Assembly (NCBI GenBank): GCA_012646185.1
Contig: GCA_012646185.1_4706.1
Length of the DNA stretch: 64,000 nucleotides
Source of the DNA: a phage
Direction: 5' to 3' (one strand)
Part shown: positions 9,385 through 34,010 of the stretch, piece by piece
Layout of the letters: each line of letters opens with the position of its first letter
Position numbering within the stretch: the stretch's first letter is position 1
Program-made: the position numbers and the translations under genes
Notes under the pieces: generated by a model
What the model was told of the DNA's origin: nothing
Databases searched by the model: none
Seen by the model: the letters and a program-made list of their open reading frames with translations, nothing else

Positions 9385-9411
9385 GATCGGTCCTCCAAGG
9401 AGCCAGTGTAA

Positions 9412-12321: not shown

Positions 12322-12355
12322 ACGGACGTAAAAAAAAAAAATAACACATAGTTAA

Positions 12356-12389
12356 CCTTCTCCCCTTCCCTTACGGGTTGGGGAGAAGG
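12356..12389. terminator. conserved terminator hairpin
   Basis: CCTTCTCCCC-TT-CCC-TTAC-GGG-TT-GGGGAGAAGG; A12 run at ~12330-12341 gives a U-run after the hairpin on minus-strand transcripts. Confidence 0.75.
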
Positions 12390-12406
12390 GCTATGCGCTA
12401 TTTAAC

Positions 12407-12682
12407 TTATCTCGAGGTTAACCACGATTCAATTGTGGTGAGGTTGCTTCGCAATACGCGCCAACTAGGGTGTGGTGGGATCACAGCACCTTGGTCGATT
12501 ACGGTTAGCTGAGCCTGGTACTTCTGTTTCATACGGGCTACCGTAGCGTTTACCGAAAGGAAAAGCTGGTAACGTTCGTACGCCGTCAGTACAGCATCCA
12601 TTTGGATTGCTTCGGTTGCTAAAACGATTTCGCGTAAGTCCTTTGCGTCCATCGGGACAGTAATGAGTTTATAATGACTCAT
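12407..12682 (-). CDS. hypothetical small protein (91 aa)
   Basis: ATG at 12680-12682 with AAGGAA ribosome-binding site; terminator immediately downstream. Confidence 0.7.
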   Translation of the reverse strand: MSHYKLITVPMDAKDLREIVLATEAIQMDAVLTAYERYQLFLSVNATVARMKQKYQAQLTVIDQGAVIPPHPSWRVLRSNLTTIESWLTSR

Positions 12683-12731
12683 AGGGTTTCCTTATCAACC
12701 AGGGTATCGCGTTAACAATACCCATCGTCAA

Positions 12732-15269
12732 TTACTGCTCTTCACGTTCCAGCAGATACTCGGAAGCGGTAATACCGTTTACCGTACGTACTGCTTTCAG
12801 ACGAGTATCATCGCTCAGAATTACAGTAACAGATTGCAGACCTTTTACTTTGGTTTCGAAGGTCTTGAACACCTGATCCAGCATACGAGCAATGCTTGGG
12901 TTGGTTGCAGCAGATGCGTGAGTGTAACCGCTCTGGTTCAGCTTCAGAATCTTGGCGTTGGTCGGTACGCGAACAACAACATGCGGACGCATCGCGAACA
13001 CGCTGTGATTGAACCAGTAAGCATCGTTGCTATCTTCGTCGGTAACGATGTCTGGATTAACACGCATATCCTCGATAGCCGCATCCGCCAAACGACGTTC
13101 GATTTCGTCAGCATCCAGAGAACCATCTTTCTCCAGTTCTGCACGATACTCACTCATGGCAACCAGATGACGTTCACGATTCGCTGCGGATTTTTCGTGA
13201 GCGGCTTTCAGGTAGTCATGCATGTTGTACAGTTCTGCCATGGAAAGACGAATGTTCCACTGACCTTCGCCGTCACGATTGCAGTAGAGACACTTCAGCA
13301 TGTTGACCCAGGTATAGTAGCAATTGGAGAATTCATCTTCAATGAACTTCTGGTCCATTTTAAGATCGTGAATCAGCCAACCGGACAGTTCTCCGATATC
13401 ATCAACGAAGCTAGAGATGGTGGTTTCAGAGAAGTTCTTCGGTACGATACGTTTGATCAGCTTGTTAACGTCTTTGGTCATGCTATCATTCAGGAAATGC
13501 CAGATACGCAGAGGAATGACATCTCGATACTGTTGCATGATCTGACGATAAGCTTTGATATCGTCGCTACGACCTTTATCAATAGACAACGCATCCAGGA
13601 ATTCATGGATTGCATCCAGCTCTTTGTCGGTATAGGTTCCCAGATAGGAATTGACGGTGGCCAGGAATGCTAATGCGTCGTTTTGGTTGACGTCGGTGTT
13701 GGTCTGCTGAATGATCGCTACTGAAGCTTTGGTTTCAGCATCCTCAACGCTTGACGCTGCGATCGCGTCGGTGACGGTAAACAGTTTCATTTCGCGCTGC
13801 TCACCGACAACGATTGGCTCACGCTGAACCGGCTTGTTAAGACTAACACGAACAACTTCTGCTTGCGCGATACGATCCAGTTTTGCCATTTCCTGCTCTG
13901 CCATACGACGAGCGGTTGGATCTGATTCAAGTTCGATGTATTCCACTTCTTCCTCCGTGAGGGATGTAATGTCAACAATGGTTTCATGAAGAATTCCGTT
14001 TTCGTCGATACGTGCTCGACGAGCGAAGTGCCTGAAGTCATACAACGTCGGCCAACGACTATTAGGTGCAAAGTCTTTGGCTTTCAGACGCATCTGCATA
14101 AATTCTTCATGTTGAACAACACGACCGTAACGCTTAGCATCTTCGGTCGCATCAATTGGATTAACGGTCTTTGTTGCCGTAGCGGAACGAGCCGTACGAA
14201 CCGGTTCAGGTTGAACGGGTTTCTGCTGCCCAGCCTTAACATGCCATTCTGGCTCTTCGTACTGCTCAGCAAATTGCTCAGCGGCTGCAAAGATATCGTT
14301 GATACCACCAATATCTCCTTCAGGATTTGTCGAGTAAATCCGTGGTTGTGGTGCCTCGTAACGCGGCGCTGTAGCAGCAGGTGCGTCATCAACGATAGGA
14401 TCGTCATCACCAACATCATACAAACGGTTGAACGCACAATCCTTCGAATCAATGTACGATGGCGTTTGTGGTTGGACAACCGTCGGCCGAGGTTGTGTGC
14501 CGTATCCTGGTGTTGTTGGAGCCATACCACGCATAACTGCTGGGTTAGGTTGGTATTGTGGTTGCGGGTAGGTTCCACCATACATGGCGTACGCAGGCTG
14601 TTGCGGTTGACCATACCCGTTGCTAACCATCGCACTTGCTTGCGGACCACGATAAGTCATCCCCATCTGCATCACCTGCTGCTTCAAACCACGTGACTTC
14701 TGAGCGATTTGCGCTAGGCTTCCGCTTTTATTCAGCTGCGTGTACTTGTTCGCGGCTTCCGGGTTAATGCGTGATAATTCAATCGCGCGATAATATTCCG
14801 GGTACTGATTCGGTTCAAAGAGCCACGTTACAAGATGATACAGCGCAACTGTGCTCACAGCAGCAGAGACGATCTGGTCGTCGGACGCGTTCTGTGGCAT
14901 CGGGTTGATGTAAGAGAACACGTTCCAACAACAGTCTTCAACAAGCGATTCCATCATCATATCGTTATTGGTATAACGTGCGACGAACTCGGTTTGTATT
15001 TTGTCTTGCTGAGCGAAGTCTTTCAGGACATTAAAGATGGCTTGACGGATTTTGACGATCGTCGCTTCTTGGGTGATGAAGTTATAGTTCTGCTGATATG
15101 AGGGTTGTTGGTATTGTGGTGGTTGATAGGCGTTATTCGGGTATGCGCCGTACGGCGATTGCTGATACTGTTGCTGACGAACCCGTTCAGCCGCATAATT
15201 AACCGTGCTCGTATAGGGGTTTTCGCTATAGCCCATTTGTTGATACATGTTGTTACTGCCATTATACAT
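12732..15269 (-). CDS. hypothetical protein (845 aa) with two Q/Y/P-rich low-complexity regions
   Basis: ATG at 15267-15269 with AAAGGA ribosome-binding site; N-terminal ~65 aa and residues ~190-270 are Q/Y/P/G-rich. Confidence 0.85.
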   Translation of the reverse strand: MYNGSNNMYQQMGYSENPYTSTVNYAAERVRQQQYQQSPYGAYPNNAYQPPQYQQPSYQQNYNFITQEATIVKIRQAIFNVLKDFAQQDKIQTEFVARYTNNDMMMESLVEDCCWNVFSYINPMPQNASDDQIVSAAVSTVALYHLVTWLFEPNQYPEYYRAIELSRINPEAANKYTQLNKSGSLAQIAQKSRGLKQQVMQMGMTYRGPQASAMVSNGYGQPQQPAYAMYGGTYPQPQYQPNPAVMRGMAPTTPGYGTQPRPTVVQPQTPSYIDSKDCAFNRLYDVGDDDPIVDDAPAATAPRYEAPQPRIYSTNPEGDIGGINDIFAAAEQFAEQYEEPEWHVKAGQQKPVQPEPVRTARSATATKTVNPIDATEDAKRYGRVVQHEEFMQMRLKAKDFAPNSRWPTLYDFRHFARRARIDENGILHETIVDITSLTEEEVEYIELESDPTARRMAEQEMAKLDRIAQAEVVRVSLNKPVQREPIVVGEQREMKLFTVTDAIAASSVEDAETKASVAIIQQTNTDVNQNDALAFLATVNSYLGTYTDKELDAIHEFLDALSIDKGRSDDIKAYRQIMQQYRDVIPLRIWHFLNDSMTKDVNKLIKRIVPKNFSETTISSFVDDIGELSGWLIHDLKMDQKFIEDEFSNCYYTWVNMLKCLYCNRDGEGQWNIRLSMAELYNMHDYLKAAHEKSAANRERHLVAMSEYRAELEKDGSLDADEIERRLADAAIEDMRVNPDIVTDEDSNDAYWFNHSVFAMRPHVVVRVPTNAKILKLNQSGYTHASAATNPSIARMLDQVFKTFETKVKGLQSVTVILSDDTRLKAVRTVNGITASEYLLEREEQ

Positions 15270-15303
15270 TTCTTACGATCCTTTTTATTTATTCGGTTAT
15301 GTG

Positions 15304-17100
15304 TCAATCGATTATGTCGTGATCGTTAATTTCTACAATTTCTTCATCGAATCGACCGACGTCTTTCTTCAAGCCTGCATTGGTTGCTGCAACGTCATTT
15401 GCAATTTGTGGGGTAATGATTAACCGACCGCGCTCATCGATAGGTGCGTACATACTGAACTTCTGACGTCCGGTTGGTTCGGAGTGTGGAAGATTCAGAT
15501 AGCTTGCACAGAACGGGATGGAACCACTAACCAAACGACTCTCGTCAGCCAATGCAGCACCGCCTGCGTTTTGGCTCTGGAGAACAACATGCGTGCTCAC
15601 TTTGAACAGCATGCAATCACCAGGTGACTGAATCGATGTTGCCACTTTCTCACGTTTATCACGATTGCTCTGGATATTGAGAATCGCTTCCGTTGCAACT
15701 TGATTTCGCAACGCCTTCTGTACATCGCGATTGGTCATCTCTTTACGGTTGTTCTGTCGTTTACCACGTTCTGTGGTTTTAAGATGGAACCCCAGTTTAA
15801 AGATGCTCTTACGCACATCCTCCATGACATATTCCAACACCATCAATTCCTTACCGAACATCGTCGTGGTGTCAACACGACTCATTTCGATAGTGACATT
15901 GTCAATCAGATACGCCATAAATTCATAGAAGTCGTCGCAAGGAATATTTTCCTGTTTGAACTTCTTCTGCTGAATTTCGTCAACGTAAAGATCGAGACTG
16001 TCGATGTGGTGGTTTACATCACGCAACAAACGCGCATCCGCATTGTTGTTATTAAAGATAATCAAACCGAGTAATGTACGCCAATGGTCTGGCGCATTCG
16101 CGAACTCTTCAACCGGATAGTCTTCCGGAAAACGATCGTAATAACGGTCGATGAGATACAAGAATGCACCGACAAGGCCAAGAACAATACGTTCCGTGCC
16201 TCCACGTCTTACAGCAATTTGAATATCAGGATGTTTGTAACGTACAGCGCTAGCGCTACGGCTTTTACCGCTTTTGCTGATACTAAAGCCTTTAGGAATA
16301 ACCCCCATGGTGCGATAGATTACCCATTGGTCACGCGGAAAATCACGTTCAGCAAGGTTCCGTCCGGTTACGGCTTCGACACCTGCAAAACGTCGGAAAC
16401 ACTCACCCACCCCGTACTTCGCAAAGAGATAGTGACCCAGTGTGGTTACGCTGGTGTGGTTGATGTTGTCACCGTTCACTTTACTTTGTTTAGTAAGATG
16501 ATAGATTTGCGACCAGGGTAATGACAGGTAATGACGATAATCGATACCGGTCGGTGTATCGTTGCTCAGGAACTGATACGGTGTACGTTTAACCGTGATT
16601 TTGTCACGCGGAAGCATGATGAACGCCATGTCTTTCGTGTAACTGATTACGGGGTCAGCGAGTACCGCACTGAGAATGAAGTTCGCACCACGTAGACGCA
16701 TTTTACCACCCTGACCTACCGCGGGTAATAGGAGAGGATGTCGGATAATGCAGTAGTCCTTTCCGGGTTCACGACGGTCACCTGATTCCATCGCGCCGTA
16801 CCAGCGGAATTCTAGCATCACCATAAACACATCGGAAGGCGCAAGGTCGAAGGTCAGCTTACCGCTATCCTTCCCTTTGGTTTTCTTTCCTCCGCTTAAG
16901 TAGTGGAACTGTTCGCGGGCCATACAGCGACGCAGGCCATGATACACCAGATCCTTAGGTAAACTATCTTTGCTGTTCCGCCAAAGACGATCAACATAGG
17001 ACTCAACATCTTGCATCTTATCGACGACGATGTTGCGTGCTATCTTCTCGTTCATCTTCGGTGCAAGCTCAGCGACAGCTTTGCAGAATCTAGGATCCAT
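15304..17100 (-). CDS. hypothetical protein (~598 aa), start moved to ATG at 17098-17100
   Basis: Track start GTG at 17103; adjacent ATG has AAAGGAG ribosome-binding site 6 nt upstream. Confidence 0.8.
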   Translation of the reverse strand: MDPRFCKAVAELAPKMNEKIARNIVVDKMQDVESYVDRLWRNSKDSLPKDLVYHGLRRCMAREQFHYLSGGKKTKGKDSGKLTFDLAPSDVFMVMLEFRWYGAMESGDRREPGKDYCIIRHPLLLPAVGQGGKMRLRGANFILSAVLADPVISYTKDMAFIMLPRDKITVKRTPYQFLSNDTPTGIDYRHYLSLPWSQIYHLTKQSKVNGDNINHTSVTTLGHYLFAKYGVGECFRRFAGVEAVTGRNLAERDFPRDQWVIYRTMGVIPKGFSISKSGKSRSASAVRYKHPDIQIAVRRGGTERIVLGLVGAFLYLIDRYYDRFPEDYPVEEFANAPDHWRTLLGLIIFNNNNADARLLRDVNHHIDSLDLYVDEIQQKKFKQENIPCDDFYEFMAYLIDNVTIEMSRVDTTTMFGKELMVLEYVMEDVRKSIFKLGFHLKTTERGKRQNNRKEMTNRDVQKALRNQVATEAILNIQSNRDKREKVATSIQSPGDCMLFKVSTHVVLQSQNAGGAALADESRLVSGSIPFCASYLNLPHSEPTGRQKFSMYAPIDERGRLIITPQIANDVAATNAGLKKDVGRFDEEIVEINDHDIID

Positions 17101-17139
17101 CACACACTCCTTTCAGAAAGTTGCTTAAGCAGATTAAAG

Positions 17140-18576
17140 TTACTTTTTCGATGACGCCTTTTCAAGAATCTTGAAAAAGGTCATACCTATACCGACAACG
17201 GCCGCGGTTATGCTCGCAGCGGCTTTCCAAACATCGACGTTACGTTGACGTCGCGCTTCTTCCGCTTCACGTTGTCTTTTTGCCTCTTCATCACGTCGAC
17301 GTATCTCAGCAGCAAACTCGTCGTGCTTACGTTTGGCTTCTTCGTCTCGACGACGAAGTTCAGCGACGAATTCTTCATGTTTGCGTTTAGCCTCGTCATC
17401 ACGACGTTTTAAATCAGCTTGATAATCTTCGTGTATTTGTTTACGTAGATCATCTTGACGCTTCATTTCGGCTTGGTGTTGTTCCATCCTACGTTTTTGT
17501 TCGTCTTTAAGCTGATCGAGTTCGGCTTTATGTTGTTCATCGCGCAGCTTTGCGTCGGCGCGATGCGCCTCATGCATCTGTGCGATAACTGCCTTGTGTT
17601 CATCCGCCATACGCCGCATTTCAGCCATCACCCCTTTAAGGGTTTCTTCTGATGCCTTACGTTCGTAGCTACGCTGGTCGAAATCATTTTTGTAGGCTTC
17701 TTTTTGGATGGGGTCGCGCCAATGCAATGCCGATTCACGTGTCGGAAAAACATTGTACTTCCACATCTCTTTTTCCAAATCTTCGACCGGTACGAAGATG
17801 GAGTCATTATTCCCGAAGGTAACCAACATACCTGGCGCGCCTGCTCCATTCGTTGGTTTTATTTCGAACGCTTTCCCCAGCACGTTAACCCATAAGCTAT
17901 ACGGATTATGAAAGTCGGGTGGCGTCCAATGGATAGTGAGTTGCGTTCCGAGAATCCGGAAACCCTCTGTTTTTCCCGTCAAGCTCCGCGCGCACGTTGC
18001 GATGTAGGGGTGATCAATCCCTTTCGTAACGTGGTCTGCGCTTTTGTATTCTCCTTTAACTTTTACGATTGCCACGTTGATTTGCGCGACATAAGCAGGT
18101 TGATTAAAGTTCAGCGTGTTGAGGTCAATTTGACATATTTCATCCAGCGTATCGTACCAGTCTTGCTGGTCTAATAGACGCGGCATTTTCTCAGCGTTAA
18201 CAATACGACGGATATGCGGTTTCCTTATCGCGTAACCTGTGCCGTTTTTAACACGGAGTATATCCCGACGTCTACCCGCGTAGACGAAGTTTCTGAATGC
18301 ACCATTCGCATTAGATACGTCATGGCTGTCAACTATTACAGGACTACGAAATTTTGAACGTCGTACGATCCTGAATGTATTGCCGTCCTCAACCCTACCA
18401 GGAATGTACTGGAACATATTGTCGGAGGTGATAACCAACACGGTATGGCCAGATTCATTAATACATGCCCATCCTAATTCCAGGTCATATAACGGTTCAG
18501 CATAACCGTCAATGCGATAAGCGTGCGTACCATCCCACGGTTCGAACGCGGTATCACATATTGGCATGGAGGGCAT
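17140..18576 (-). CDS. hypothetical protein (~478 aa): globular N-domain, E/R/K-rich repeat helix, C-terminal transmembrane anchor
   Basis: Start moved to ATG at 18574-18576 (GGAGG, 6-nt spacer); three 19-aa repeats LRRRDEEAKRKHEEFVAE; hydrophobic AAASITAAVVGIGMTFF followed by KILEKASSKK at the C-terminus. Confidence 0.8.
   Translation of the reverse strand: MPSMPICDTAFEPWDGTHAYRIDGYAEPLYDLELGWACINESGHTVLVITSDNMFQYIPGRVEDGNTFRIVRRSKFRSPVIVDSHDVSNANGAFRNFVYAGRRRDILRVKNGTGYAIRKPHIRRIVNAEKMPRLLDQQDWYDTLDEICQIDLNTLNFNQPAYVAQINVAIVKVKGEYKSADHVTKGIDHPYIATCARSLTGKTEGFRILGTQLTIHWTPPDFHNPYSLWVNVLGKAFEIKPTNGAGAPGMLVTFGNNDSIFVPVEDLEKEMWKYNVFPTRESALHWRDPIQKEAYKNDFDQRSYERKASEETLKGVMAEMRRMADEHKAVIAQMHEAHRADAKLRDEQHKAELDQLKDEQKRRMEQHQAEMKRQDDLRKQIHEDYQADLKRRDDEAKRKHEEFVAELRRRDEEAKRKHDEFAAEIRRRDEEAKRQREAEEARRQRNVDVWKAAASITAAVVGIGMTFFKILEKASSKK
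17255..17425 (-). repeat. tandem ~57-bp in-frame repeats encoding the E/R/K-rich helix
   Basis: Repeated cgacg...gcgac...ttcttc...tttgcgttt units visible on the plus strand; bounds approximate. Confidence 0.5.
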
Positions 18577-18726
18577 CGTCAACCTCCATCTGATTGAAAA
18601 CTATCACGCATAATGCATTTCCCTTTTCTTGTTCTTATCGAGCCGACAGCCGACGGTTTCAGCATCGTTCCTAGCGCGAGAACGACCTTACGTGTTGTCT
18701 ATGCCTTATTCATCGCAGGCGTCTGT

Positions 18727-18746
18727 CACCTAGGTAATGTAAGCGT
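18727..18746 (-). promoter_or_regulatory. conserved motif CACCTAGGTAATGTA (plus strand), candidate promoter element
   Basis: Same core as elements at 25205-25267 and 63861-63924; lies after a terminator and ~150 nt upstream of the 18576 start. Confidence 0.3.
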
Positions 18747-18784
18747 CAAATTTTTTCTATTCGCAACAATAAACGGCATAGAAA

Positions 18785-18814
18785 CCTCCCCCAACCCTTA
18801 CGGGCTGAGGGAGG
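18785..18814 (-). terminator. terminator hairpin downstream of major capsid gene
   Basis: CCTCCC...CCC-TTAC-GGG...GGGAGG; U-rich run follows on minus-strand RNA (plus 18750-18765). Confidence 0.65.
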
Positions 18815-18913
18815 CTGACTTATGTATCACGGTGCCGGATGAATGTCCGGTGCAATGAAACCATCCGCAACGTTGTCGTCAAGAATATCGTCCAACGAAG
18901 CAGCTACGGTAGT

Positions 18914-21136
18914 TCAGTTAGTCTGAACCGGCAGCTTGATGTTTTCAGTGTAGACCTTACGCAGGTTCACAACGTTAATCAGACCCAGCAGCGGGCAGTT
19001 GTTAACGAAGCGGCAGCGCGGCTGAACCATGGTTTCTTTAGAAACCTGACCGTTACGGGTAACCTGAGCAACAGATACCAGTTCCGGTACATACAGGAAC
19101 ATACCGAAGGTCAGCGGATCCGGAGAACCCTGGATACCACGAGACAGGGTCACGAAGATCTTATCGCGCAGCATGACGTTCGGGTTATCTACAACCACGA
19201 AGTTGAAGCTTACACCAACGGTACGGAAATCGCCATCGGTCTGCAGGAACTGCGGGATGTAGTTGTCAGTTGCTACTACGCAACGCGGTTTCTCATCAGC
19301 GTTGGAAGACAGCAGCTGCAGAGCTGGCTGATAACCAGACTCGGAGTACATGCGGTATGCCATCTCACGAATCACGTTCATGATCGCAGCAGACACTTCA
19401 GCACGACGTTCTGCAGTGGTGGTACCCTGAACAGATTTCTCCAGGTCCAGATTGATTTCTTCGAACCACGGACGGATCAGGTAACGACCGAAACCTTCGA
19501 TCTGGATGTCGCCGAACTGACGGAAGCGAGAGGTCGCAACCGCTTTCAGTGCGTCTTTGTAGCTGAACAGTTTCTCAACCATCAGGTTGTCGAAACGTGC
19601 GTTAGCAGCTTGGATCAGAACGTCCAGGTCAGCAGCGTTTTCTTCCCAATCCAGCGGACGAGGAATGGAGAACGGAGCCAGCAGGCCGATTGCGTAACGT
19701 TCTTGCTTCATGTTGAAGTCAAGGTGCTTACCGCGCTCACGACGGTTGCTGTTGTTACGGCGGATACGCAGTTCGTAACCAACCAGTTTGAAGCTCAGGT
19801 CTTCAGCCAGCTGTTTGAACTCTTCGCCCTTACGCGGTTGTTCGATGTTGTCACGATCGACCAGACGATACAGTTCAGCGTTAGCGCCGTTAACACGCAG
19901 ACCGGCTTTCTCTACGTTGGAAGAACCGTAAACTTCGATTGCCAGCTGAGCAGCGGATTTCGAATCGATGATGTCCTGCAGCGCTTCAGCTCGTGCACCT
20001 TTAACGTCAACGGTGTTCTCATCAACGAAGATGGAGTGGGTGTCGAACGCCAGGGTCATTTTGCGGAAGTCGCCTTCCAGGGATTTCTGGAAACCGTTGG
20101 TGATCAGACCAGATACGTCGAACGGTACGTAAGAGGTTTTGCTGTGCTTGGTAGATTTGATTTCCACCAGGATTTTGGTCAGCGTGATCTGGGCGTCCAG
20201 CGCGTCGGTGTTGTCGCTGTAACCGTTAGCCAGGATGCTATCGTCTTCAGCGATACCGATCATGTCGATCAGTTTATCAACAGCCAGGTAAGACGTTTTA
20301 TAAGTTACGCCTTTAATTTCGATGTCGCGCGGAGCAACGATAGCTTTGTCAACGAAGTACTGTGCGTTAGCATCGTCAGCACGATAGATCGGATGCAGAT
20401 CGGTCACGTCGTTGGACAGAACGTCGTTGTACATGAACGCATCCAGCAGCGGACGACGTACCCAATCAGCCGGAGTACCGTCAGCGTTACGACGCAGGTG
20501 GTTGAACACCAGCGGACGACGGAAAGATACGTCGTAACCGATCTGGTTCGGAGCCAGAACGATGGTGTTGTACAGTTCGTTACCCATGCGGCTCAGACGA
20601 GAAGCCTTCACGTTGAACACAACGGAGTACGGCATCATGTCACGCAGTTCTTTCTGGTCGTAGGACAGCTGAACCAGTTCTTCAGATTCGCAACCGCAGG
20701 AATCAGCAGCCATCATGACGAAGTTAGAGCTGTCAACTTCACGGCCAGACGGAGTGGTGCTGATGTTCATGGAACGTGCTTGTTTAGCATATTCCACCGG
20801 GTTACCATGAGCCAGCATGATCAGTGCTGCTGCACGAGCCTGCTGTGCGTTCATGGTGAACAGCTGTTCTTCAATACGCTGCTTCTCTTCCGGAGTGGTG
20901 GTTTCGAAGCCCAGCATGGACAGAACCGGTTCTTCGGCTTTACGGATGTCGCTGCTGAAGCTCTTAACATCCATTTCGTTAACCAGTTTGTCCATGGATT
21001 TGAAATCAACCTTAGAAGCAGATTCCATAGACAGGAAGGTGTTCTCCAGACCTTTGTCTGCTGGTTTGCTACCATTAGCGGTCAGGAACTGGCGAGTGGC
21101 CGCGACCTGTTGGCTAAGAAGGGTTTTATCATTCAT
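18914..21136 (-). CDS. putative major capsid protein (740 aa)
   Basis: ATG at 21134-21136 with AAAGGA ribosome-binding site; length close to the ~750-aa capsid proteins of phiKZ-like phages (recollection, not verified); strong host-like codon bias; own terminator. Confidence 0.55.
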   Translation of the reverse strand: MNDKTLLSQQVAATRQFLTANGSKPADKGLENTFLSMESASKVDFKSMDKLVNEMDVKSFSSDIRKAEEPVLSMLGFETTTPEEKQRIEEQLFTMNAQQARAAALIMLAHGNPVEYAKQARSMNISTTPSGREVDSSNFVMMAADSCGCESEELVQLSYDQKELRDMMPYSVVFNVKASRLSRMGNELYNTIVLAPNQIGYDVSFRRPLVFNHLRRNADGTPADWVRRPLLDAFMYNDVLSNDVTDLHPIYRADDANAQYFVDKAIVAPRDIEIKGVTYKTSYLAVDKLIDMIGIAEDDSILANGYSDNTDALDAQITLTKILVEIKSTKHSKTSYVPFDVSGLITNGFQKSLEGDFRKMTLAFDTHSIFVDENTVDVKGARAEALQDIIDSKSAAQLAIEVYGSSNVEKAGLRVNGANAELYRLVDRDNIEQPRKGEEFKQLAEDLSFKLVGYELRIRRNNSNRRERGKHLDFNMKQERYAIGLLAPFSIPRPLDWEENAADLDVLIQAANARFDNLMVEKLFSYKDALKAVATSRFRQFGDIQIEGFGRYLIRPWFEEINLDLEKSVQGTTTAERRAEVSAAIMNVIREMAYRMYSESGYQPALQLLSSNADEKPRCVVATDNYIPQFLQTDGDFRTVGVSFNFVVVDNPNVMLRDKIFVTLSRGIQGSPDPLTFGMFLYVPELVSVAQVTRNGQVSKETMVQPRCRFVNNCPLLGLINVVNLRKVYTENIKLPVQTN

Positions 21137-21285
21137 TGAAAGTATCCTTTACAGAATTAACTTATATAAGTCGGTCGATAGACCATAGCGTACACGCGTG
21201 CATGCGCCACTATAGTATCAGTAAACACTTACCGTTATTGAGGTCGTGATACAACACTAAAAATGCCGCATAACTTTTCCCTACG

Positions 21286-21906
21286 TCACAAACGACGCAG
21301 GCGATAATGGATGGAACGATTGGTGCAATATGAACGGAACAGCGGCAATTGCGCAACTTCCGCAAGACTCATATTAATTCGCAGGTGTTCAATAACGGCG
21401 CTGTAGTTATCAGCAATACGATCGCTCAATAACTCTTCTGCCAATAAAGGAAGACAATCGACAACAATCGCGATCACATCCTCATTAACATAACGCACCC
21501 GAACACTCAGCGGACGTTTGTCTGGGCTGTAAGTTGGATCCGCCAAACGACGTTCAATATCACGCGGATAGCTCGTCAGTAAATGGTAATAACCATTGTC
21601 ATAACGATTGATGTACTCACACAGCACATCAACATTCTTCTCTGGCGGCAAACCTGTTTCGTCATAGTGATACGCAAACATACCACCAAGCAGGTTGTTA
21701 AGATGAACCGCAGGGTTCGCTTGTTCGTGTTCTTTCGTGATGAAGAAAGGCACGTTCTGGGCTGCGAAATAAAAACCTACATCATTGGGCGATAGTATGC
21801 CGAAAAGACTTTTAGGGTCTAATAACACCTGTAAGTCATCACGCGCATTTCGAATAATCGCGTGTTCTACCCAATTCGGAACGACGAGATATCGGAGTTC
21901 CTTCAT
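21286..21906 (-). CDS. hypothetical protein (206 aa)
   Basis: ATG at 21904-21906 with AAGAGG ribosome-binding site. Confidence 0.8.
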   Translation of the reverse strand: MKELRYLVVPNWVEHAIIRNARDDLQVLLDPKSLFGILSPNDVGFYFAAQNVPFFITKEHEQANPAVHLNNLLGGMFAYHYDETGLPPEKNVDVLCEYINRYDNGYYHLLTSYPRDIERRLADPTYSPDKRPLSVRVRYVNEDVIAIVVDCLPLLAEELLSDRIADNYSAVIEHLRINMSLAEVAQLPLFRSYCTNRSIHYRLRRL

Positions 21907-21945
21907 TATGATTACCTCTTTGCAAGTATCGAAAGGATTGAGTCG

Positions 21946-23556
21946 ATGGACCCAAAACAGATAGCCATTAAGATTATTACGTTACTGTTTCGTAATGCAC
22001 AATTGAACCATCCCGATCCCAGTACGATCGAACATGTTAAATCCGTCTTAGATAAAGTCGAACCCCCGAAAAACCATCTCGCTACAGACGTAGATAGAGA
22101 GGTTTTCAACAACCTGATGAATACCATTCATTGGATGTTGGAACAACCATTATCGGAACCTTTCGATAAACAACAGTTGTTACAAAGGATACGTTTGGAT
22201 TGCCTTGAACAAAGCAATCTTTACGAGATTCTTGCCGACGGACTGTACGATATCGAAGACGACGCTCATATCAGTAAGGTCTGTTCGCTCTATTACAATG
22301 AATTACGTAATCTGATTACCCGGCGTCGTGTTTTCGAAACCTTTAAAAACACGTACATGGATATCAGTAACGGGCGACTTGGGGATAAAGAATTTTTCGA
22401 TGCGATGGCGAATCTGAAATTATCGCTAGACAGTATCGAAATGGATACCGAAAATCCCGAAGAGATGTCGTGTATGATTGACGGCTTTATCGCTGACAGC
22501 GAAGACGATATCGAGAAAGTTGAACGTATGTTCGTCAAAGCGATGGAACGTAACAGTCCTGAAGGTGGATTTGTAACCGGCTGGCAAGGCTTTAATAAAA
22601 TGTTGGGGTCGGTCGGCGTTTTACGTCGCGGTACCTTAGGACTGATTGGTGCAATGCAGCACCGGAACAAGTCAGGCGTGTTGTTAAAACTGTTCACACA
22701 TCTGGCATTGTACAACAAACCCCATTTCTTTTTCCCAGAGCGAGCAAAGAAAGCATTACTGATTCATTTGTCGACAGAAAACGAAGTGGAAGAAAACACG
22801 CTTCAGATATACAAGAACATGCGAGAACAGGAAACGGGCGAATATGTCGATATTCGTAAGATTGACCCTCGCGAGGCATCACGTTATGTGTTGAAGGTGT
22901 TCAACGATGCGGGTTTCTCTGTTTGTATGCGTCGTGTTGATGGGATGAGTTATAAACAACTCGCTAATCTCATCGACCATTTCGAACGCATGGGTTATGA
23001 AGTCATGGCGTTGTTCATTGACTATCTGAAAATGTTCTCATCGGAAGGGTTGGATAGAAATGGACCGACCGGCGCATGGCTCCAAGAACTCTTCAACAAA
23101 GTCCGTAACCTCTGCAGCGTTAAACGTATTTTAGGTATGACGGTACACCAGCTGTCATCCGATGCGAAGATGCGTGCGCGTGATGGTAACGATGAAGAGT
23201 TTGTTGACCAGGTCGCAGGTTTAAGTTACTGGGATGGTTGTAAAGGGATCGACCGTGAGATTGACCTTGAGGTGATTGTTGATATCGTTAAGGAGCCGGG
23301 CAAACGTCAAAGTTGGCAGGTCTTTGCGTTAGGGAAAGACCGTCAACCGGATAACGGTTCAACGAAACCTGAAGACAAACATTTCGCGATGCCATTCCAA
23401 ACCATCGGGATGCTTCCTGATGATTACGGTAAGAAAGCAGTATACTGCCGCAAGGTTGGCGGACAACCTGTCTCCGAGGGAGGTAAAGGTCCGTGGAACA
23501 AGTTCGATGAAAACGCAGCACCGAGTAATGAATTACAATTTGATTTAGAATTTTAA
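21946..23556 (+). CDS. putative DnaB-like helicase (~536 aa) with atypical P-loop
   Basis: Start moved from GTG 21862 to ATG 21946 (AAAGGA, 8-nt spacer). GWQGFNKMLGSVGVLRRGTLGLIGAMQHRNKSG parallels the DnaB Walker A region; ALFIDYL resembles DnaB Walker B IDYLQL; QLSSD follows. Confidence 0.5.
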   Translation: MDPKQIAIKIITLLFRNAQLNHPDPSTIEHVKSVLDKVEPPKNHLATDVDREVFNNLMNTIHWMLEQPLSEPFDKQQLLQRIRLDCLEQSNLYEILADGLYDIEDDAHISKVCSLYYNELRNLITRRRVFETFKNTYMDISNGRLGDKEFFDAMANLKLSLDSIEMDTENPEEMSCMIDGFIADSEDDIEKVERMFVKAMERNSPEGGFVTGWQGFNKMLGSVGVLRRGTLGLIGAMQHRNKSGVLLKLFTHLALYNKPHFFFPERAKKALLIHLSTENEVEENTLQIYKNMREQETGEYVDIRKIDPREASRYVLKVFNDAGFSVCMRRVDGMSYKQLANLIDHFERMGYEVMALFIDYLKMFSSEGLDRNGPTGAWLQELFNKVRNLCSVKRILGMTVHQLSSDAKMRARDGNDEEFVDQVAGLSYWDGCKGIDREIDLEVIVDIVKEPGKRQSWQVFALGKDRQPDNGSTKPEDKHFAMPFQTIGMLPDDYGKKAVYCRKVGGQPVSEGGKGPWNKFDENAAPSNELQFDLEF

Positions 23557-23582
23557 ACGCAAAAAAAAAAGATTGTGCGGTT

Positions 23583-23614
23583 CCCTCCTCCAACCCGTAA
23601 GGGAAGGAGGAGGG
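23583..23614. terminator. conserved terminator hairpin between convergent genes
   Basis: CCCTCCTCC-AA-CCC-GTAA-GGG-AA-GGAGGAGGG preceded by A10 (U10 after hairpin on minus strand). Confidence 0.8.
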
Positions 23615-23630
23615 GTTATGACCGCTTTGA

Positions 23631-23957
23631 TTAACTTATTGTCATGAATTCATTAGGTGAAAATTTCCAGCCGTTCTCAGTGAGAAGCGTGTTGAGTTTC
23701 GCTGCAACGATAAGCCATGCATGCATGGCTGTTACATCGTATTGGCGATTCACTCGACGTTGGTTTTCGATATTGATTTGCTCCTGTTCAGTGATGTTTG
23801 GATAAAGTGCGATAGCGCTAGGTTTACCCAGCGCGCTAGTCATCACCGCCGTACATTCACTGATAATGTTGTTTAAGTGGTAGTTATACACCGTTCCACG
23901 CATGACGCGATGACGGCATTCGATAATAGCGTCGTAAATGATTTCTCGAGTAATCAT
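23631..23957 (-). CDS. hypothetical small protein (108 aa)
   Basis: ATG at 23955-23957; terminator downstream. Confidence 0.75.
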   Translation of the reverse strand: MITREIIYDAIIECRHRVMRGTVYNYHLNNIISECTAVMTSALGKPSAIALYPNITEQEQINIENQRRVNRQYDVTAMHAWLIVAAKLNTLLTENGWKFSPNEFMTIS

Positions 23958-23963
23958 GATAAT

Positions 23964-24365
23964 TTAAAACATACGGTCGTTTTTAGCACGGGCGTCCATT
24001 ACCAGATCGTAGATGCCTGCGGTTCGTAAGCACTCTTCGTAGTAACGATGTGTGCCTTCCTCAGCCATCCACGATAACCCACGGCTATCCGCAACAATAA
24101 CCAGTTTGTTATTGTTGAACGCACACACCACACGGTAGGTCGCGTTGTTATTCGGATCGCGAGTGATAAGTTCGTAAACGCCGTTAACAGGTTTACTGAA
24201 TTCACCGTTTAACGGAACGAGTTCGGTAGTACCTTCAGCAAACGTTACGTTGATCGGTGATGGGTCTTTAGCGATAACAGTATATTCCACATTGTGTTCT
24301 TTACTGGTCATAATACCGAAGTAAGAACTCACAGGGGAACGTGGTACACTAAGAATATTAAACAT
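23964..24365 (-). CDS. hypothetical protein (133 aa)
   Basis: ATG at 24363-24365 with AAGAGGA ribosome-binding site. Confidence 0.8.
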   Translation of the reverse strand: MFNILSVPRSPVSSYFGIMTSKEHNVEYTVIAKDPSPINVTFAEGTTELVPLNGEFSKPVNGVYELITRDPNNNATYRVVCAFNNNKLVIVADSRGLSWMAEEGTHRYYEECLRTAGIYDLVMDARAKNDRMF

Positions 24366-24435
24366 AGATGTTGTCCTCTTAATTGGATTTAGATTGTTGG
24401 GTGTGTTATTGGGAAATGAAAACGTTGTTTCGGTT

Positions 24436-25005
24436 TTAGACGATGAGTGACCAGGTGGTAAGCACCCCGCTTGCGAATTCGAGCTTAAGACGTTTACCGA
24501 TAAGTTGTTGTTGGATCATCTTCTCGGTGATACGTCGATCATGCTGAACCGCTTTATCAAACGCTTCTTTCGCTTCAGCTTGGTAGAAGTTCGTTTCTTC
24601 GTTTTCGTCGATCTCTTCGAGAGCATCGTCGTCGATGTCAGCAAGTTTCACTCGACCGTTTTCATCAGGTTGTTCTGCAGGTTCATTGTCATACGGCGTG
24701 TCTTTTGTTGGTGCGACACGATGTTGCAACTCGACCTGCGTTAACATGATCTCCATCTCACCATCGATAGGAATGATTTCATCGGCGCTGCCGTTTTCGG
24801 TCAGCTCTCGACTTTCCAGTAATGTCGTCGTAACAGAGAACACCTCTTCAACAGGAACCTCATCATCGTCGATGGTGTTAACCGTATTGCTGGTAACTTC
24901 GGCAACAACCATCAAATCAAATGCGTGAGGGTCACCTGGCATTTTGATTCCTGGAAGTTTGTTGAGGTACCAAGGATCAAGAATCATGATTTCTGGATTA
25001 AACAT
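24436..25005 (-). CDS. hypothetical acidic protein (189 aa)
   Basis: ATG at 25003-25005 with GAAAGG ribosome-binding site; ~200-nt leader after the conserved element. Confidence 0.8.
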   Translation of the reverse strand: MFNPEIMILDPWYLNKLPGIKMPGDPHAFDLMVVAEVTSNTVNTIDDDEVPVEEVFSVTTTLLESRELTENGSADEIIPIDGEMEIMLTQVELQHRVAPTKDTPYDNEPAEQPDENGRVKLADIDDDALEEIDENEETNFYQAEAKEAFDKAVQHDRRITEKMIQQQLIGKRLKLEFASGVLTTWSLIV

Positions 25006-25204
25006 CGTATTTTACCTTTCTATGTTAGGTGGATTGCGGATAGAAGAATCAATGCATAGATTGATAGTTCTTTGTTAGAAATTATTGCCGAACCGGTTAT
25101 GGTTATAACGCGTGTTTTCGTATTCTGACGGGTCGCGTATTAATAAGGCCATGACTGTATCCTCGATTATTAAGAGAAATTTACAACGATAACAGTAACC
25201 GCTG

Positions 25205-25267
25205 TTATCACCTAGGTAATGTAGTCGCGAAATAAACTGGAGTAATGCGAAATAAGACAGCATAGAA
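25205..25267 (-). promoter_or_regulatory. conserved ~60-nt element, candidate phage promoter
   Basis: About 85% identical to 63861-63924; plus strand reads CACCTAGGTAATGTAGTCGCGAAATAAACTG...CGAAATAAGACAGCATAGAA. Confidence 0.35.
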
Positions 25268-25299
25268 CCCTCTCCCAACCCATCAGGGAAGGGAGAGGG
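25268..25299 (-). terminator. conserved terminator hairpin
   Basis: CCCTCTCCC-AA-CCC-ATCA-GGG-AA-GGGAGAGGG directly after the stop of the 25304 gene. Confidence 0.7.
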
Positions 25300-25303
25300 A
25301 ATA

Positions 25304-26671
25304 TTAAACGGTTGGGCGAACGGTGTTGTCTTTTTCTGGTGCAAGCCATAACGTGACCGTACCATGGCATGTCCACTGTGGTTCACGTACAGAAGAACCT
25401 GCCATCGTAACAGCACAATCGGTACGCATGATAACCCCGTATGCTTCGCAGAGATTGTTATCCTGCATCCACACAACTTTAGCAGGCATGCCAGGATACA
25501 ACAAATCCATGTTTGCGTATTCCCACACCAACTGCATTGTTCTGCCGCGTAATCCAGCAGTATTACTTAATTCACGCCATCGGTTATCGGTTACGCGCCC
25601 CATCCCTTTCGCCACCTTCACGTTATCGCTACGTTCTTCAGTTACGTACTCGCTAACGTTTACGGTACGACTGATTATCGTATCACCCCCTTTTGATAAT
25701 GTCATTCCCTGACTCATCTGACTTGCCGAAACAAAACGCCCGCCCGCATTACCTAACAACGAAGCCGCGTTATTGATGTCGCTTACCGACGCCCCTCTCG
25801 TACATGCAATTTCCACGTATTTGTCACGATTGATCCAGGTCTTGTCCATGCCCGGAAACATATCGGCAGGATAGTTGTAAAAGATAGCCGTACGGCGGCC
25901 ATCAGAGAAACGGGTTTCGTCATAGAGAGGATAAATATACAGATACGGGGATTGATAATAACAACCGACATCCGCTGAATAAATACCGACCTGGTTCTGG
26001 ATTTTGTCTACGAGATCCATTGCGTTGGTACCGTGTGGAAGAATAAGCAACTTGAACAGGTTGTCGTTATTCGGTGCAACAATATCCACACCCTGCATTT
26101 TGAACCCGGTATCGGCTTCAACCGCAGAAAGTATCTTGCTGAATTCGAGCCGTAACACATCCAGCACTTTCGACCCGGTATAGTTTTCACCGGTTTCTGA
26201 TTGCATGAAGCTTTCAAGAACAGGATCGAACAGTTGAAATTGAAGATCGACCATTTGTTCGTAGTCTTTCTTCGAAGAATCGGTTGCGGTACGTTCGTCG
26301 TTAGCAGACATACGACTGTCTACGGTTGTTAAACAAACCGCCCGGTAGACGTAAGCTTGCGCAGCATCGTCTACGGTTTGGCGTTGTCCGCGCATCAGGC
26401 TGTACGCCTGCACGATGATGCGCATTTTAAGTTGTTGTTGGTATGGTAGAATGTATTTTCCGTAACTGCCCGGTGGGAACTTTACAGAAATATAAAGTTC
26501 ATCCCCTGCGTTACGTTCATAGTCTCGATACGTGTGGACTTGAGTCACTAAAGGAACAGACACCGTCATTGACGGCGTGATTAATTCCGCGGTGACTTTA
26601 TACGCAACAGCAACTGCTTCCTGCGCAAATGTACCGATATACCGTCCTAACGGCGTCTGTTTGTAATCCAT
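25304..26671 (-). CDS. hypothetical protein (455 aa)
   Basis: ATG at 26669-26671; long ORF; upstream gene stops 2 nt before its start. Confidence 0.85.
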   Translation of the reverse strand: MDYKQTPLGRYIGTFAQEAVAVAYKVTAELITPSMTVSVPLVTQVHTYRDYERNAGDELYISVKFPPGSYGKYILPYQQQLKMRIIVQAYSLMRGQRQTVDDAAQAYVYRAVCLTTVDSRMSANDERTATDSSKKDYEQMVDLQFQLFDPVLESFMQSETGENYTGSKVLDVLRLEFSKILSAVEADTGFKMQGVDIVAPNNDNLFKLLILPHGTNAMDLVDKIQNQVGIYSADVGCYYQSPYLYIYPLYDETRFSDGRRTAIFYNYPADMFPGMDKTWINRDKYVEIACTRGASVSDINNAASLLGNAGGRFVSASQMSQGMTLSKGGDTIISRTVNVSEYVTEERSDNVKVAKGMGRVTDNRWRELSNTAGLRGRTMQLVWEYANMDLLYPGMPAKVVWMQDNNLCEAYGVIMRTDCAVTMAGSSVREPQWTCHGTVTLWLAPEKDNTVRPTV

Positions 26672-26673
26672 GT

Positions 26674-27279
26674 TTAACGACCCCGTTGCTGTTGTTGAAT
26701 GATGAATTCTTCGATCTTCGTACCACGGAATTCGCTGTGACGAACCGCTTGCAGTTGCTCTTCAACGGTTGGGCCTGCGTTGAGACCGCCACGACGTGCG
26801 CGGTTGATGCCGATTTTACGACGCTGACCGATTTCACGTAAACGTGAAGATAATCCGCTCATTTCGGTTGGGTCTTTAATACGACCGCGTGCAACGTTCC
26901 ACAGACCACCCATGAACTCTTCGAGGATACGGCTGGCTTCGAGAGACGGTACGCGTGCGTTGGGATCGTTTTCGAGATTGTATTTAACGTATTCCGTGTG
27001 TTCCAGAAGAAGCATGAACATCTTCATGGCGTTCACGTCAGGATTTGCAATACGCATAGGGACACCACGAGAATGTTTTTCAGCAGCCTGCGGTACAGTG
27101 AGCTGTGCGGGCACCTCTTCGTTCATGGCCATATCGTCGATTTCTGCAACCCCTGAAGAGTAGACACCGCTGACTTCGTTGGTGTAGTTATCCACCATGA
27201 ATTTACGGGGAATCCAGAATTCGAATTTACGTTCAAATAGACGTTTGGTTGGGGTATCTTTAACGTGTTGTAGACTCAT
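26674..27279 (-). CDS. hypothetical protein (201 aa)
   Basis: ATG at 27277-27279 overlapping the upstream TGA (ATGA coupling). Confidence 0.8.
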   Translation of the reverse strand: MSLQHVKDTPTKRLFERKFEFWIPRKFMVDNYTNEVSGVYSSGVAEIDDMAMNEEVPAQLTVPQAAEKHSRGVPMRIANPDVNAMKMFMLLLEHTEYVKYNLENDPNARVPSLEASRILEEFMGGLWNVARGRIKDPTEMSGLSSRLREIGQRRKIGINRARRGGLNAGPTVEEQLQAVRHSEFRGTKIEEFIIQQQQRGR

Positions 27280-28592
27280 GGTTCAATAGCTCCTGCTCGT
27301 AACAGCATAATAACGAACGGTGTGAAATAATAACGATCTAGCGGAGAAAGCAACGGTATTGCGTCAACCATCTGTTTCAGTGCCGGATGGCTGATCGCTT
27401 TCTCATCGACCATATCACGTACCATACTCTCAATAATCGTCATTGGGGCTTGATTGCGGTAGAAAGCCTCTGTGAAAACATAGTACGGATCGTCCGCTAC
27501 CGATGGAAACAACGGAACGCCGTCATACTCCATCGATGTAAGGTTGGTCACCAACGGATTTGTCGGTGGTGTGTTTTCAGGTACAGCCAACTCTTTACCT
27601 ACGTCTTCACCGAGCGACGTGGTCGCAGGCCACATACAGAACCGCGCACCACTAAAACGAATCCCACCTGCAGCCGGGTACTGATAGAAACGCTTTGTTG
27701 ACAACAGTGTGAATTTCACCGTCAACCGTGCTTCGTCTTCCCGACGTCCGTCCATGACCCATTCAAAGACAGAAATCGCGTTCGCTTCCTGGCTGTCGTC
27801 TACGTTAAGGCGTCCGAAGTTCCATGAAGGTTTTCCTTCAAGCGACGACCATAATTTCGTAAACGCGTTAACGCACCAGGGATCGTAGGTTGCAGCATCT
27901 TGACCAGGAACAAGCAATGTGTTTAATTCACGGCTGTAGAATTCATGGTAGTACGCGTGACAAAGTCCCAGTGCACGACGGAGATAATCGTACTTACGAT
28001 TGTATTTCTCCGTTGCCATTACGGGATGTTTTCCGTGCTTTAACTGGTCTTGGTCGTACAGCGTATCCTCAACGATTTTCGCTTCCAGTTCGATAAGCTG
28101 TTTTTCGTCAAGAATACGTTGGAAGGAAATATCACATTCGTAAGCCGGTGCTAAGCTGATGTTCTTCGGCGTGATTCGGGTGATCGTGTACACCGCGATA
28201 CGATGATCGAGACCGGAGATTAACAGCATGTTACCTAAAAGAGGAACCGATACCGCCGGAAGTATACACGTACCCTCGGATTGAAAACGTGCGGTCCCGT
28301 TGTCGTACGACGGCGTCAATGACGACATTAACTTGATAGGGTAATGTCTGATGCGACGGTACTGCTGCTCGGCAATATCACGGTTAGCTTGAAAACTGCT
28401 TTGTTCATCATCACGACCGAGAATCTGTTCGTAATAATCACATTCTACGGAATAACCGGATGCGTAATTCACTAACCCGATTTGACTATTGTATTGCTCA
28501 TCCACCACTGCAGAACGATAAACATCGTCGCGAGCCTTCGCGGGTTGTTGGGGGTTGATGATGGGTTTCGCGGGCTTCTTAGCGAGCGCCAT
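27276..28592 (-). CDS. hypothetical protein (438 aa)
   Basis: ATG at 28590-28592; overlaps end of upstream gene. Confidence 0.85.
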   Translation of the reverse strand: MALAKKPAKPIINPQQPAKARDDVYRSAVVDEQYNSQIGLVNYASGYSVECDYYEQILGRDDEQSSFQANRDIAEQQYRRIRHYPIKLMSSLTPSYDNGTARFQSEGTCILPAVSVPLLGNMLLISGLDHRIAVYTITRITPKNISLAPAYECDISFQRILDEKQLIELEAKIVEDTLYDQDQLKHGKHPVMATEKYNRKYDYLRRALGLCHAYYHEFYSRELNTLLVPGQDAATYDPWCVNAFTKLWSSLEGKPSWNFGRLNVDDSQEANAISVFEWVMDGRREDEARLTVKFTLLSTKRFYQYPAAGGIRFSGARFCMWPATTSLGEDVGKELAVPENTPPTNPLVTNLTSMEYDGVPLFPSVADDPYYVFTEAFYRNQAPMTIIESMVRDMVDEKAISHPALKQMVDAIPLLSPLDRYYFTPFVIMLLRAGAIEP

Positions 28593-30144: not shown

Positions 30145-30520
30145 CGATGTCGTCCTCGCTAATTTCCTCACCTCCTTGTTGTCGATATCCGGTATAATGA
30201 ATCAGACTGCTCTGTAGAAGCTCTTTAACGAGCCCTAGACGCGTTTTATCTGTTTCATTGGACGTTTCCATTAATGTTTCTATTTCGTTGTTTAAAACAG
30301 CGTATAGCGCTTCTAACGGCAATCCTTGGATGATTGGTTTGATGGTACCTTCCGGTAGTGCCGCAACAGGAATCTGCACGACGGTTTCATGTGAGGTATG
30401 TGGGTTAATACGGCAAATATACATACCGGGTACTGAATGTCGCGGGCACGCCGCTACCAAGCATGTCTGTTGCTGCGCACCGTTAAGTGCGAGTGAGAGA
30501 AATTTTGCTTCACGTGTCAT
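30137..30520 (-). CDS. hypothetical protein (127 aa)
   Basis: ATG at 30518-30520. Confidence 0.75.
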   Translation of the reverse strand: MTREAKFLSLALNGAQQQTCLVAACPRHSVPGMYICRINPHTSHETVVQIPVAALPEGTIKPIIQGLPLEALYAVLNNEIETLMETSNETDKTRLGLVKELLQSSLIHYTGYRQQGGEEISEDDIDA

Positions 30521-30571
30521 CGCAGATTCCTGTTTGAAAGATAAGATATCACATGATGGTCGACAGCATAA

Positions 30572-30593
30572 AGCCCACCCCGAAGGGCGGGCT
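30572..30593 (-). terminator. hairpin AGCCCACCC-CGAA-GGGCGGGCT with GCATAAA/TTTATGC flanks
   Basis: Sits between the stop of the 1128-aa gene and the next start. Confidence 0.5.
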
Positions 30594-30608
30594 GTTTATG
30601 CGTACGGA

Positions 30609-33995: not shown

Positions 33996-34010
33996 AAAGC
34001 GTTATTCCTC

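Follow-up and report, generated by a model that had tools for sequence, protein, structure and literature searches.

A Goslar-type jumbo phage window carries a phiKZ-type major capsid protein gene near-identical to Goslar gp41

The closest described counterpart of the locus studied here is gp41 (YP_009820726 / QBO63834) of Escherichia phage vB_EcoM_Goslar. The Goslar cryo-EM study identifies gp41 as the major capsid protein (MCP), with a canonical HK97 fold plus an insertion (I) domain, and describes a capsid about 147 nm across with T=27 symmetry and 1,615 MCP copies. In the same study, 576-583 of the 740 MCP residues were built in the virion models, density for residues 1-157 is missing in the virion, the deposited mature chain begins at S158, and the model stops at residue 740, with a tight six-stranded barrel in the centre of the hexon built from the C-terminal arms; GFP-gp41 was also seen at capsids. 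The capsid of phiKZ is described in similar terms, with an HK97 fold and an I domain in its MCP, T=27 and removal of an N-terminal propeptide of ~160 residues, and one account places the cut in phiKZ gp120 at E163|N164, made by the gp175 protease (PMC11297242). Jumbo-phage MCPs of this kind have the N-arm, P domain and A domain in common with HK97 gp5, the prototype of the fold, but are about twice as long, with the E-loop replaced by an insertion domain and the A domain enlarged. The passages on capsid stabilisation in the Goslar and phiKZ accounts attribute it to latch/decoration proteins together with a vertex-binding complex, and make no mention of covalent chain-mail crosslinks.

The window analysed here is the whole stretch of phage DNA, 64 kb in length. 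ORF calling across the window placed a 740-aa ORF on the minus strand at exactly 18914..21136, where the preliminary description had proposed a 740-aa phiKZ-type MCP gene and had given no strand. We conclude that this ORF is almost certainly the MCP gene of a Goslar-type, nucleus-forming Escherichia coli jumbo phage (Chimalliviridae, genus Goslarvirus), and that its product is a near-identical allele of Goslar gp41, a protein already known and structurally solved. The gene, the two parts of its product and its neighbours are as follows.

18914..21136, minus strand: major capsid protein (MCP) gene, 740 codons plus TGA, ortholog of Goslar gp41 and phiKZ gp120
20666..21136, minus strand: N-terminal propeptide, residues 1-157, whose removal by a prohead protease would follow from the Goslar and phiKZ cases
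18917..20665, minus strand: mature HK97-fold capsid domain, residues 158-740, with N-arm, P, A and I domains and C-terminal arm
21286..21906, minus strand: gp42 homolog, 100% identical to Goslar gp42, upstream of the capsid gene
21862..23556, opposite strand to the capsid gene: divergent DnaB-like helicase (divDNAB; PF20307, 1.6e-120)
15304..17103, minus strand: beta-like subunit of the non-virion RNA polymerase (nvRNAP), homolog of phiKZ gp123, two genes downstream of the capsid gene

The longest ORF at the capsid locus lies on the plus strand (18839..21139, 766 aa), and since it covers the same bases, the strand of the capsid gene needed settling first. The chance that this longer frame is the real gene and the 740-aa frame is not can be treated as negligible. 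It runs exactly in register with the minus-strand capsid codons, its product would be a V/Q/F/T/R-rich mirror sequence, and homology, solved structures and the third-position substitution pattern all fit the minus-strand frame. The capsid gene contains zero TTA, CTA and TCA codons, of which the neighbouring genes have 9-28, and the antisense frame stays open only because these codons, whose reverse complements are stop codons, are missing. The 766-aa ORF is not a gene but a side effect of the extreme codon optimisation.

To describe this optimisation, we calculated the codon adaptation index (CAI) on the 46 Goslar genes mapped to the window, using the E. coli relative-adaptiveness table of Sharp & Li (1987). 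The capsid gene ranked first with a CAI of 0.745 (mean 0.33, sd 0.10) and had the lowest ENC of the 46 genes (30.1), so that the earlier statement that its codon usage is the most host-optimised in the window was confirmed. The sole comparable gene is the gp58 homolog (39270..40592; CAI 0.718, the second highest; ENC 30.2), which encodes a phiKZ_IP internal head protein (PF12699) estimated at ~2,150 copies per Goslar virion. Codon bias follows protein copy number in this window. In phiKZ the host is Pseudomonas, whereas the codons of the capsid gene in the window are tuned to E. coli.

Profile searches with the 740-aa ORF matched Pfam PF25620 (PhiKZ major capsid protein gp120) at E = 4.5e-216 and 719.3 bits, against a curated cut-off of 27 bits, with ORF residues 98-731 aligned to profile positions 2-635 of 635, and matched phrog_3231 'major head protein' at E = 1.1e-162. 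When PDB sequences were searched with phmmer, phiKZ gp120 (PDB 8y6v), the founding member of PF25620, was recovered at E = 3.4e-55 (query 56-731 on chain 63-735), and 8bfl, a 'Major head protein' of another jumbo phage, at E = 8.3e-62. The phiKZ protein is ~25% identical to the MCP of the window and of similar length (747 versus 740 aa), as the preliminary description had supposed. PDB chains named 'Major capsid protein' (11bt, 11fg, 11mk and 11ml) are 99% identical to the ORF product across all 740 residues, and the 583-residue chain of PDB 36za shows 99% identity with residues 158-740 in the same length and register; in this mature part, 578 of 583 residues are the same as in the solved chain 36za_A0 / 11bt. 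Given the Goslar chains at 99% identity, the protein has an HK97 fold with N-arm, P and A domains. The proposal was to fall if nothing resembled HK97-fold capsid proteins; such a resemblance is decisively present, the fold of Goslar gp41 being canonical HK97. Sequence similarity to HK97 gp5 itself was not detected in the searches made.

A tblastn search of 50,697 phage records found homologs in 226 of them, one copy each, most of them annotated as major head or capsid protein. Only two records reached 99% identity, and both are Escherichia phage vB_EcoM_Goslar, once in GenBank and once in RefSeq; every other record fell below 60%. Among these, the homolog of Xanthomonas phage RTH11 had 32% identity, the phiKZ-like phages of Erwinia, Klebsiella, Serratia and Pseudomonas had 25-31%, and the SPN3US-type Salmonella phages had ~26%. 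The comparison with phiKZ gp120 and SPN3US-type capsid proteins that had been recommended thus found homology to both, and together with the PF25620, phrog_3231 and 8y6v matches and the 99% identity to Goslar gp41, it bears out the claim of a phiKZ-type MCP.

HK97-fold proteins serve other purposes elsewhere, and we therefore considered whether the ORF might encode a capsid-like paralog with another role (scaffold, decoration or encapsulin-like), or belong to a prophage or cryptic element. This is highly improbable, considering that the protein is 99% identical over its full length to the one modelled as the Goslar hexon and penton lattice, that tblastn found one MCP copy per genome in every phage record, that the window aligns collinearly with the 237-kb genome of a lytic phage, and that the protein is found again on contigs as long as a complete Goslar-type genome (235-249 kb). 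We found no evidence that contradicts the MCP identity of the ORF; by analogy with the 99%-identical Goslar gp41, the variant in the window would likewise build the hexon and penton lattice.

The genomic context agrees with the capsid assignment. Megablast aligned window positions 8000..32000 with Goslar 32493..56493 at 97.5% identity, and local blastn showed the whole window to be collinear with Goslar ~24.5-86.8 kb, at 96.9% identity over the first 49 kb of the window and 89-94% beyond. Divergence from the Goslar genome amounts to ~3% around the capsid gene and ~10% in the right third of the window. Because the window is collinear at ~97% and yet diverged, it comes from a Goslar-type phage (genus Goslarvirus) other than Goslar. 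The earlier suggestion of a jumbo phage with an enterobacterial host is thereby upheld, the window being ~97% identical to an Escherichia phage. Phage Sharanji was also considered as the source and set aside; it is described as a non-nucleus-forming jumbo phage, behaviour unlike that of Goslar.

The window holds homologs of Goslar gp029/030 to gp075. Goslar gp42 is a vertex-binding-complex protein at the inner capsid surface and a homolog of phiKZ gp119, and phiKZ gp123 is a subunit of the non-virion RNA polymerase, one of the two that are beta-like (PMC8287921). The window shares with phiKZ both the gp119 homolog upstream of the capsid gene and the nvRNAP gp123 homolog downstream, and the gene order gp42-gp41-gp40-gp39 parallels phiKZ gp119-gp120...gp123 and matches the 'core block 5' described for the Chimalliviridae, with the MCP, a helicase and an RNAP beta subunit. 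The gp040 homolog downstream of the capsid gene had no family match. The collinear block, the MCP, divDNAB, the phiKZ gp123 homolog, gp42 and the phiKZ_IP protein together place the window in a Chimalliviridae/Goslarvirus context.

One statement of the preliminary description, that the window has no RNA polymerase beta or beta-prime motifs, proved wrong in substance. ORF 15304..17103 matched phrog_2943 'polymerase' at 7.4e-120 and chain E of PDB 7ogp (phiKZ gp123) at 5.8e-41; canonical RNAP motifs are invisible by eye in this ORF because such subunits are highly diverged. The five virion-RNAP subunits of Goslar (gp78, gp196, gp205, gp207 and gp210) are all encoded outside the gp029-gp075 span, the start of gp78 being projected ~1.2 kb past the window end. 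The reported lack of a tubulin or nuclear-shell gene was correct, since Goslar PhuZ (gp234) and chimallin (gp246) also lie outside this span; given the near-identity to Goslar, the phage of the window would be expected to encode chimallin. The 'T4-like polymerase fragment' mentioned earlier is the gp068 homolog (56014..57513), which matched phrog_3011 DNA polymerase at 2.3e-150. An HNH/NUMOD1 homing-endonuclease gene comes after the gp068 homolog.

Comparison with Goslar gp41 showed that 733 of 740 residues are the same (99.05%). The two genes differ at 31 nucleotides (98.6% identity), which change 20 codons synonymously and 7 nonsynonymously; the two loci share the 740-aa length, the neighbours, an identical 149-nt leader and the downstream hairpin. 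Two of the seven substitutions fall in the propeptide (T73S and L74M), and the other five are clustered within residues 376-437 (K376V, K382R, A392S, Q428R and S437G). From the numbering, these five probably lie in the I domain, because along the chain they are near the contact residues of the I domain, 403-421. The inter-hexon contacts Y403, S405, R414 and E421 and the loop 211-229 are the same as in Goslar gp41.

The exact 740-aa sequence was present on at least 23 contigs in ENA and Logan assemblies, including contigs of 153 kb and 236 kb, with neighbours always the same, and scans of IMG/VR and JGI added eight further loci, whose proteins are 98-99% identical and whose contigs reach 249 kb. 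Relatives intermediate between this clade at 98% identity or more and the next-nearest MCPs (~32%) were not found in the viral and metagenome contig scans or by tblastn. Across 13 distinct variants, third codon positions hold 150 of the 175 variable sites of the capsid gene, which, together with the 20 synonymous versus 7 nonsynonymous differences from Goslar, indicates strong purifying selection.

Regarding processing, a motif scan of the ORF product for the phiKZ-type protease motif (Ser/Ala/Gly-x-Glu) identified two candidate Gly/Ser-x-Glu cleavage sites, GCE150 and SEE153, which would be cut after E150 and E153 and sit 4-7 residues ahead of the first ordered residue, S158. By analogy with Goslar and phiKZ, we infer that the N-terminal propeptide is cleaved by a prohead protease at or near these residues in the phage of the window. 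A prohead protease gene is absent from the 64-kb window.

The sequences flanking the capsid gene contain the following features.

21137..21285, minus strand: 149-nt leader between the gp42 homolog and the capsid ATG, conserved across variants
21145..21149, minus strand: Shine-Dalgarno AAGGA, 8 nt ahead of the ATG, located by reading the sequence
21269..21272 and 21184..21187, minus strand: two TATG motifs in the leader, candidate nvRNAP late-promoter start sites
18827..18913, minus strand: in-frame open stretch past the capsid stop, 28 codons then TGA, probably just 3' UTR
18783..18816, minus strand: 15-bp GC-rich hairpin, probable capsid-gene terminator, 97 nt past the stop codon
18774..18783, minus strand: TTCTATGCCG motif, directly 3' of the hairpin

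The AAGGA element agrees with the earlier claim that the gene has its own ribosome-binding site. Goslar and three metagenome variants have the same leader as the window, and across the 13 variants only 6 of its 149 sites vary (4.0%), compared with 20.3% of capsid third codon positions (binomial P = 1e-8); its last ~100 nt are without change in 12 of the 13. Late promoters of the phiKZ non-virion RNAP have a TATG consensus that overlaps the start site (PMC7618050), and three consecutive promoters precede the MCP gene in phiKZ and 201phi2-1 (PMC11512511). Motif resemblance and conservation suggest that the two leader TATG motifs may be late promoters, TATG being too short to reach significance alone. 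A consensus promoter scan around the capsid gene returned one weak sigma-70-like site, which lies inside the gene, and shuffled sequences gave more.

Downstream of the gene, the hairpin has a folding energy of -31.3 kcal/mol (z = -4.3 to -5.3) and is kept in all 13 variants; the UUUCUAUGCCGUUUAUU that comes after it makes a weak U-tract. The stem substitutions, two in variant L007 and four in variant L014, all keep pairing, by changing G.U to G-C or A-U, or Watson-Crick pairs to G.U. Judging from motif resemblance and conservation, the hairpin is probably a transcription terminator. The terminator that the preliminary description had assigned to the gene is thus partly supported: a strong conserved hairpin is present, but the U-tract is weak and a consensus terminator scan around the capsid gene found no terminator. 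An inverted-repeat search returned just short palindromes and missed G.U-containing terminator hairpins, and an Rfam gathering search and ARAGORN found nothing in the whole window.

This hairpin and the motif next to it are part of a family: the window contains five copies of TTYTATGMYG where 1.35 would be expected. Each copy lies on the minus strand, within an intergenic spacer and immediately 3' of a strong hairpin whose 5' arm is pyrimidine-rich and 3' arm purine-rich (-25 to -31 kcal/mol). A sixth variant of the hairpin and motif lies upstream of the gp052 homolog, and two of the family hairpins coincide with Goslar spacers that carry depositor-annotated terminators. Conserved terminator sequence motifs are known from phiKZ and 201phi2-1 (PMC11512511). 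At the capsid gene, TTCTATGCCG could be the U-tract of the terminator, a TATG-type promoter for the downstream gp040 and gp039 homologs, or both. More speculatively, the hairpin and TTCTATGCYG units might be bifunctional terminator/TATG-promoter modules for the phage RNA polymerase.

Between the stop codon and the hairpin, the capsid frame remains open, and we considered whether leaky reading of the UGA might produce a minor MCP form whose C-terminus is lengthened by an acidic stretch of 28 residues, TTVAASLDDILDDNVADGFIAPDIHPAP, that serves a capsid function. Such a product would run beyond residue 740 into TTVAASLDDILDDNVADGF. In E. coli, a UGA stop with A as the next base is comparatively leaky. 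Past the stop, 13 of 13 variants keep the frame open over 28 codons and are free of indels, the changes found there in the five closest variants (3 of 3) are at synonymous third positions, and the stretch is less variable than neutral-like sites (0.119 versus 0.203, P = 0.03). This lead from the five closest variants weakened once more diverged variants were added: over all 13, nonsynonymous changes outnumber synonymous ones by ~7 to 4 and the phases are distributed 3/2/5, a pattern that cannot be told from neutral, and a 28-codon open frame would arise by chance in 26% of cases. In addition, the Goslar model ends at residue 740 with the C-terminal arms packed in the hexon barrel. RNA structure was rejected as the cause of the conservation, the first predicted 3' UTR hairpin being broken by observed substitutions. 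We consider a functional extended form quite unlikely, and its more specific version, a low programmed rate of UGA readthrough that would place an acidic tail on a few dozen of the 1,615 subunits in the manner of Q-beta A1, is equally a slim prospect. If true, this would give a dsDNA jumbo phage a minor form of its capsid protein. The post-stop stretch is probably plain 3' UTR.

By homology with Goslar and phiKZ, the capsid gene would be a late gene, read from the conserved leader by the non-virion RNA polymerase of the phage itself. The strong Shine-Dalgarno and the extreme E. coli-optimal codons would then make translation of its mRNA on host ribosomes very efficient. The resulting 740-aa precursor would assemble into the procapsid, and a prohead protease would take off its ~150-157 N-terminal residues. 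The remaining 583-residue HK97-fold core, with its insertion domain, would make up the hexons and pentons, 1,615 copies in all, of a ~147-nm shell with T=27 symmetry. The exact capsid allele is recurrent in public metagenome assemblies and has little value as a discovery. Its value is as an anchor: the capsid gene marks the whole 64-kb window as that of a Goslar-type chimallivirus, which can be read against the Goslar gene map.

Downstream of the capsid gene, which encodes the ortholog of phiKZ gp120, lies a 599-aa ORF:

15304..17103, minus strand, homolog of Goslar gp039 (phrog_2943)

A Pfam search of its product returned no family at E ≤ 0.001. The product matched PDB 7ogp_E (5.8e-41), and this similarity identifies it as a homolog of phiKZ gp123, one of the two beta-like subunits of phiKZ's multisubunit non-virion RNA polymerase (nvRNAP), contradicting the preliminary description, which had seen no RNA polymerase in the window.

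Six copies of a hairpin module, all on the minus strand and all intergenic, were found in the window:

18774..18816, minus strand, downstream of the capsid gene, hairpin then TTCTATGCYG
25258..25300, minus strand, hairpin then TTCTATGCYG
about 30560..30595, minus strand, hairpin then the variant motif TTTATGCTG
36500..36542, minus strand, hairpin then TTCTATGCYG
39206..39248, minus strand, hairpin then TTCTATGCYG
63915..63965, minus strand, hairpin then TTCTATGCYG

Each hairpin (-25 to -31 kcal/mol) is rich in pyrimidines on its 5' arm and in purines on its 3' arm, with TTCTATGCYG directly abutting the 3' side. Since the TATG of this motif resembles the late-promoter consensus of the phiKZ nvRNAP, these modules may be terminator-plus-promoter units. 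One hairpin-TTCTATG motif also encloses a start codon:

25261..25263, minus strand, ATG of the gp047 homolog (62 aa; Goslar CDS mapped at 95% identity)

This start has neither a spacer nor a Shine-Dalgarno sequence, which may mean either that this short CDS was wrongly annotated or that its mRNA has almost no leader.

The capsid gene is preceded by a leader of low variability and overlapped by a long antisense ORF:

21137..21285, minus strand, 149-nt capsid-gene leader
18839..21139, plus strand, antisense ORF of 766 aa, exceeding the actual gene in length

Across 13 distinct variants of the locus, the variability of the leader was one fifth that of synonymous sites (P = 1e-8), and its last ~100 nt were unchanged in 12 of them. 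The z-score of its minimum free energy fold was only -2.6. This low variability may reflect promoters, a structured 5' UTR or some binding site. The antisense ORF is in exact register with the capsid codons and is open only because the capsid gene contains no TTA, CTA or TCA codon. Gene callers that favor the longest ORF could be misled by it.

Codon bias ranked second in the window (CAI 0.718, ENC 30.2) for an internal head protein gene:

39270..40592, minus strand, gp58 homolog (phiKZ_IP, PF12699)

This agrees with the ~2,150 gp58 copies reported per Goslar virion.

Several regions depart from Goslar:

12407..12682, minus strand, gp037 homolog, 91 aa
47532..51137, minus strand, gp064 homolog, 1,201 aa
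56014..58743, plus strand, family-B DNA polymerase N-terminal fragment, then HNH/NUMOD1 homing-endonuclease gene
60681..61079, insertion ORF 1, 132 aa, N-terminus MNVADSVAKAVIDNIDH
61115..61510, insertion ORF 2, 131 aa, N-terminus MSIVESIVKAVNDNIDH

The gp037 homolog is only 80% identical to its Goslar counterpart, whereas flanking genes reach 98-99.9%, making this a local divergence hotspot. Goslar gp064 has 930 aa, and only 544 residues of the two proteins could be aligned, at 98% identity; the window product had no Pfam or PHROG match. Because 49167..50839 had no megablast match to Goslar, a domain must have been swapped or inserted. The 499-aa polymerase fragment shares 99.8% identity with Goslar gp068, whereas the endonuclease shares only 68% with gp069, a far greater divergence in the homing endonuclease than in its conserved host gene. 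Finally, a ~930-bp insertion relative to Goslar (60689..61622) carries two tandem paralogs with similar N-termini and sits among small genes, the gp070-gp075 homologs, whose products are 150-200 aa long; this region looks like a variable accessory-gene cluster.
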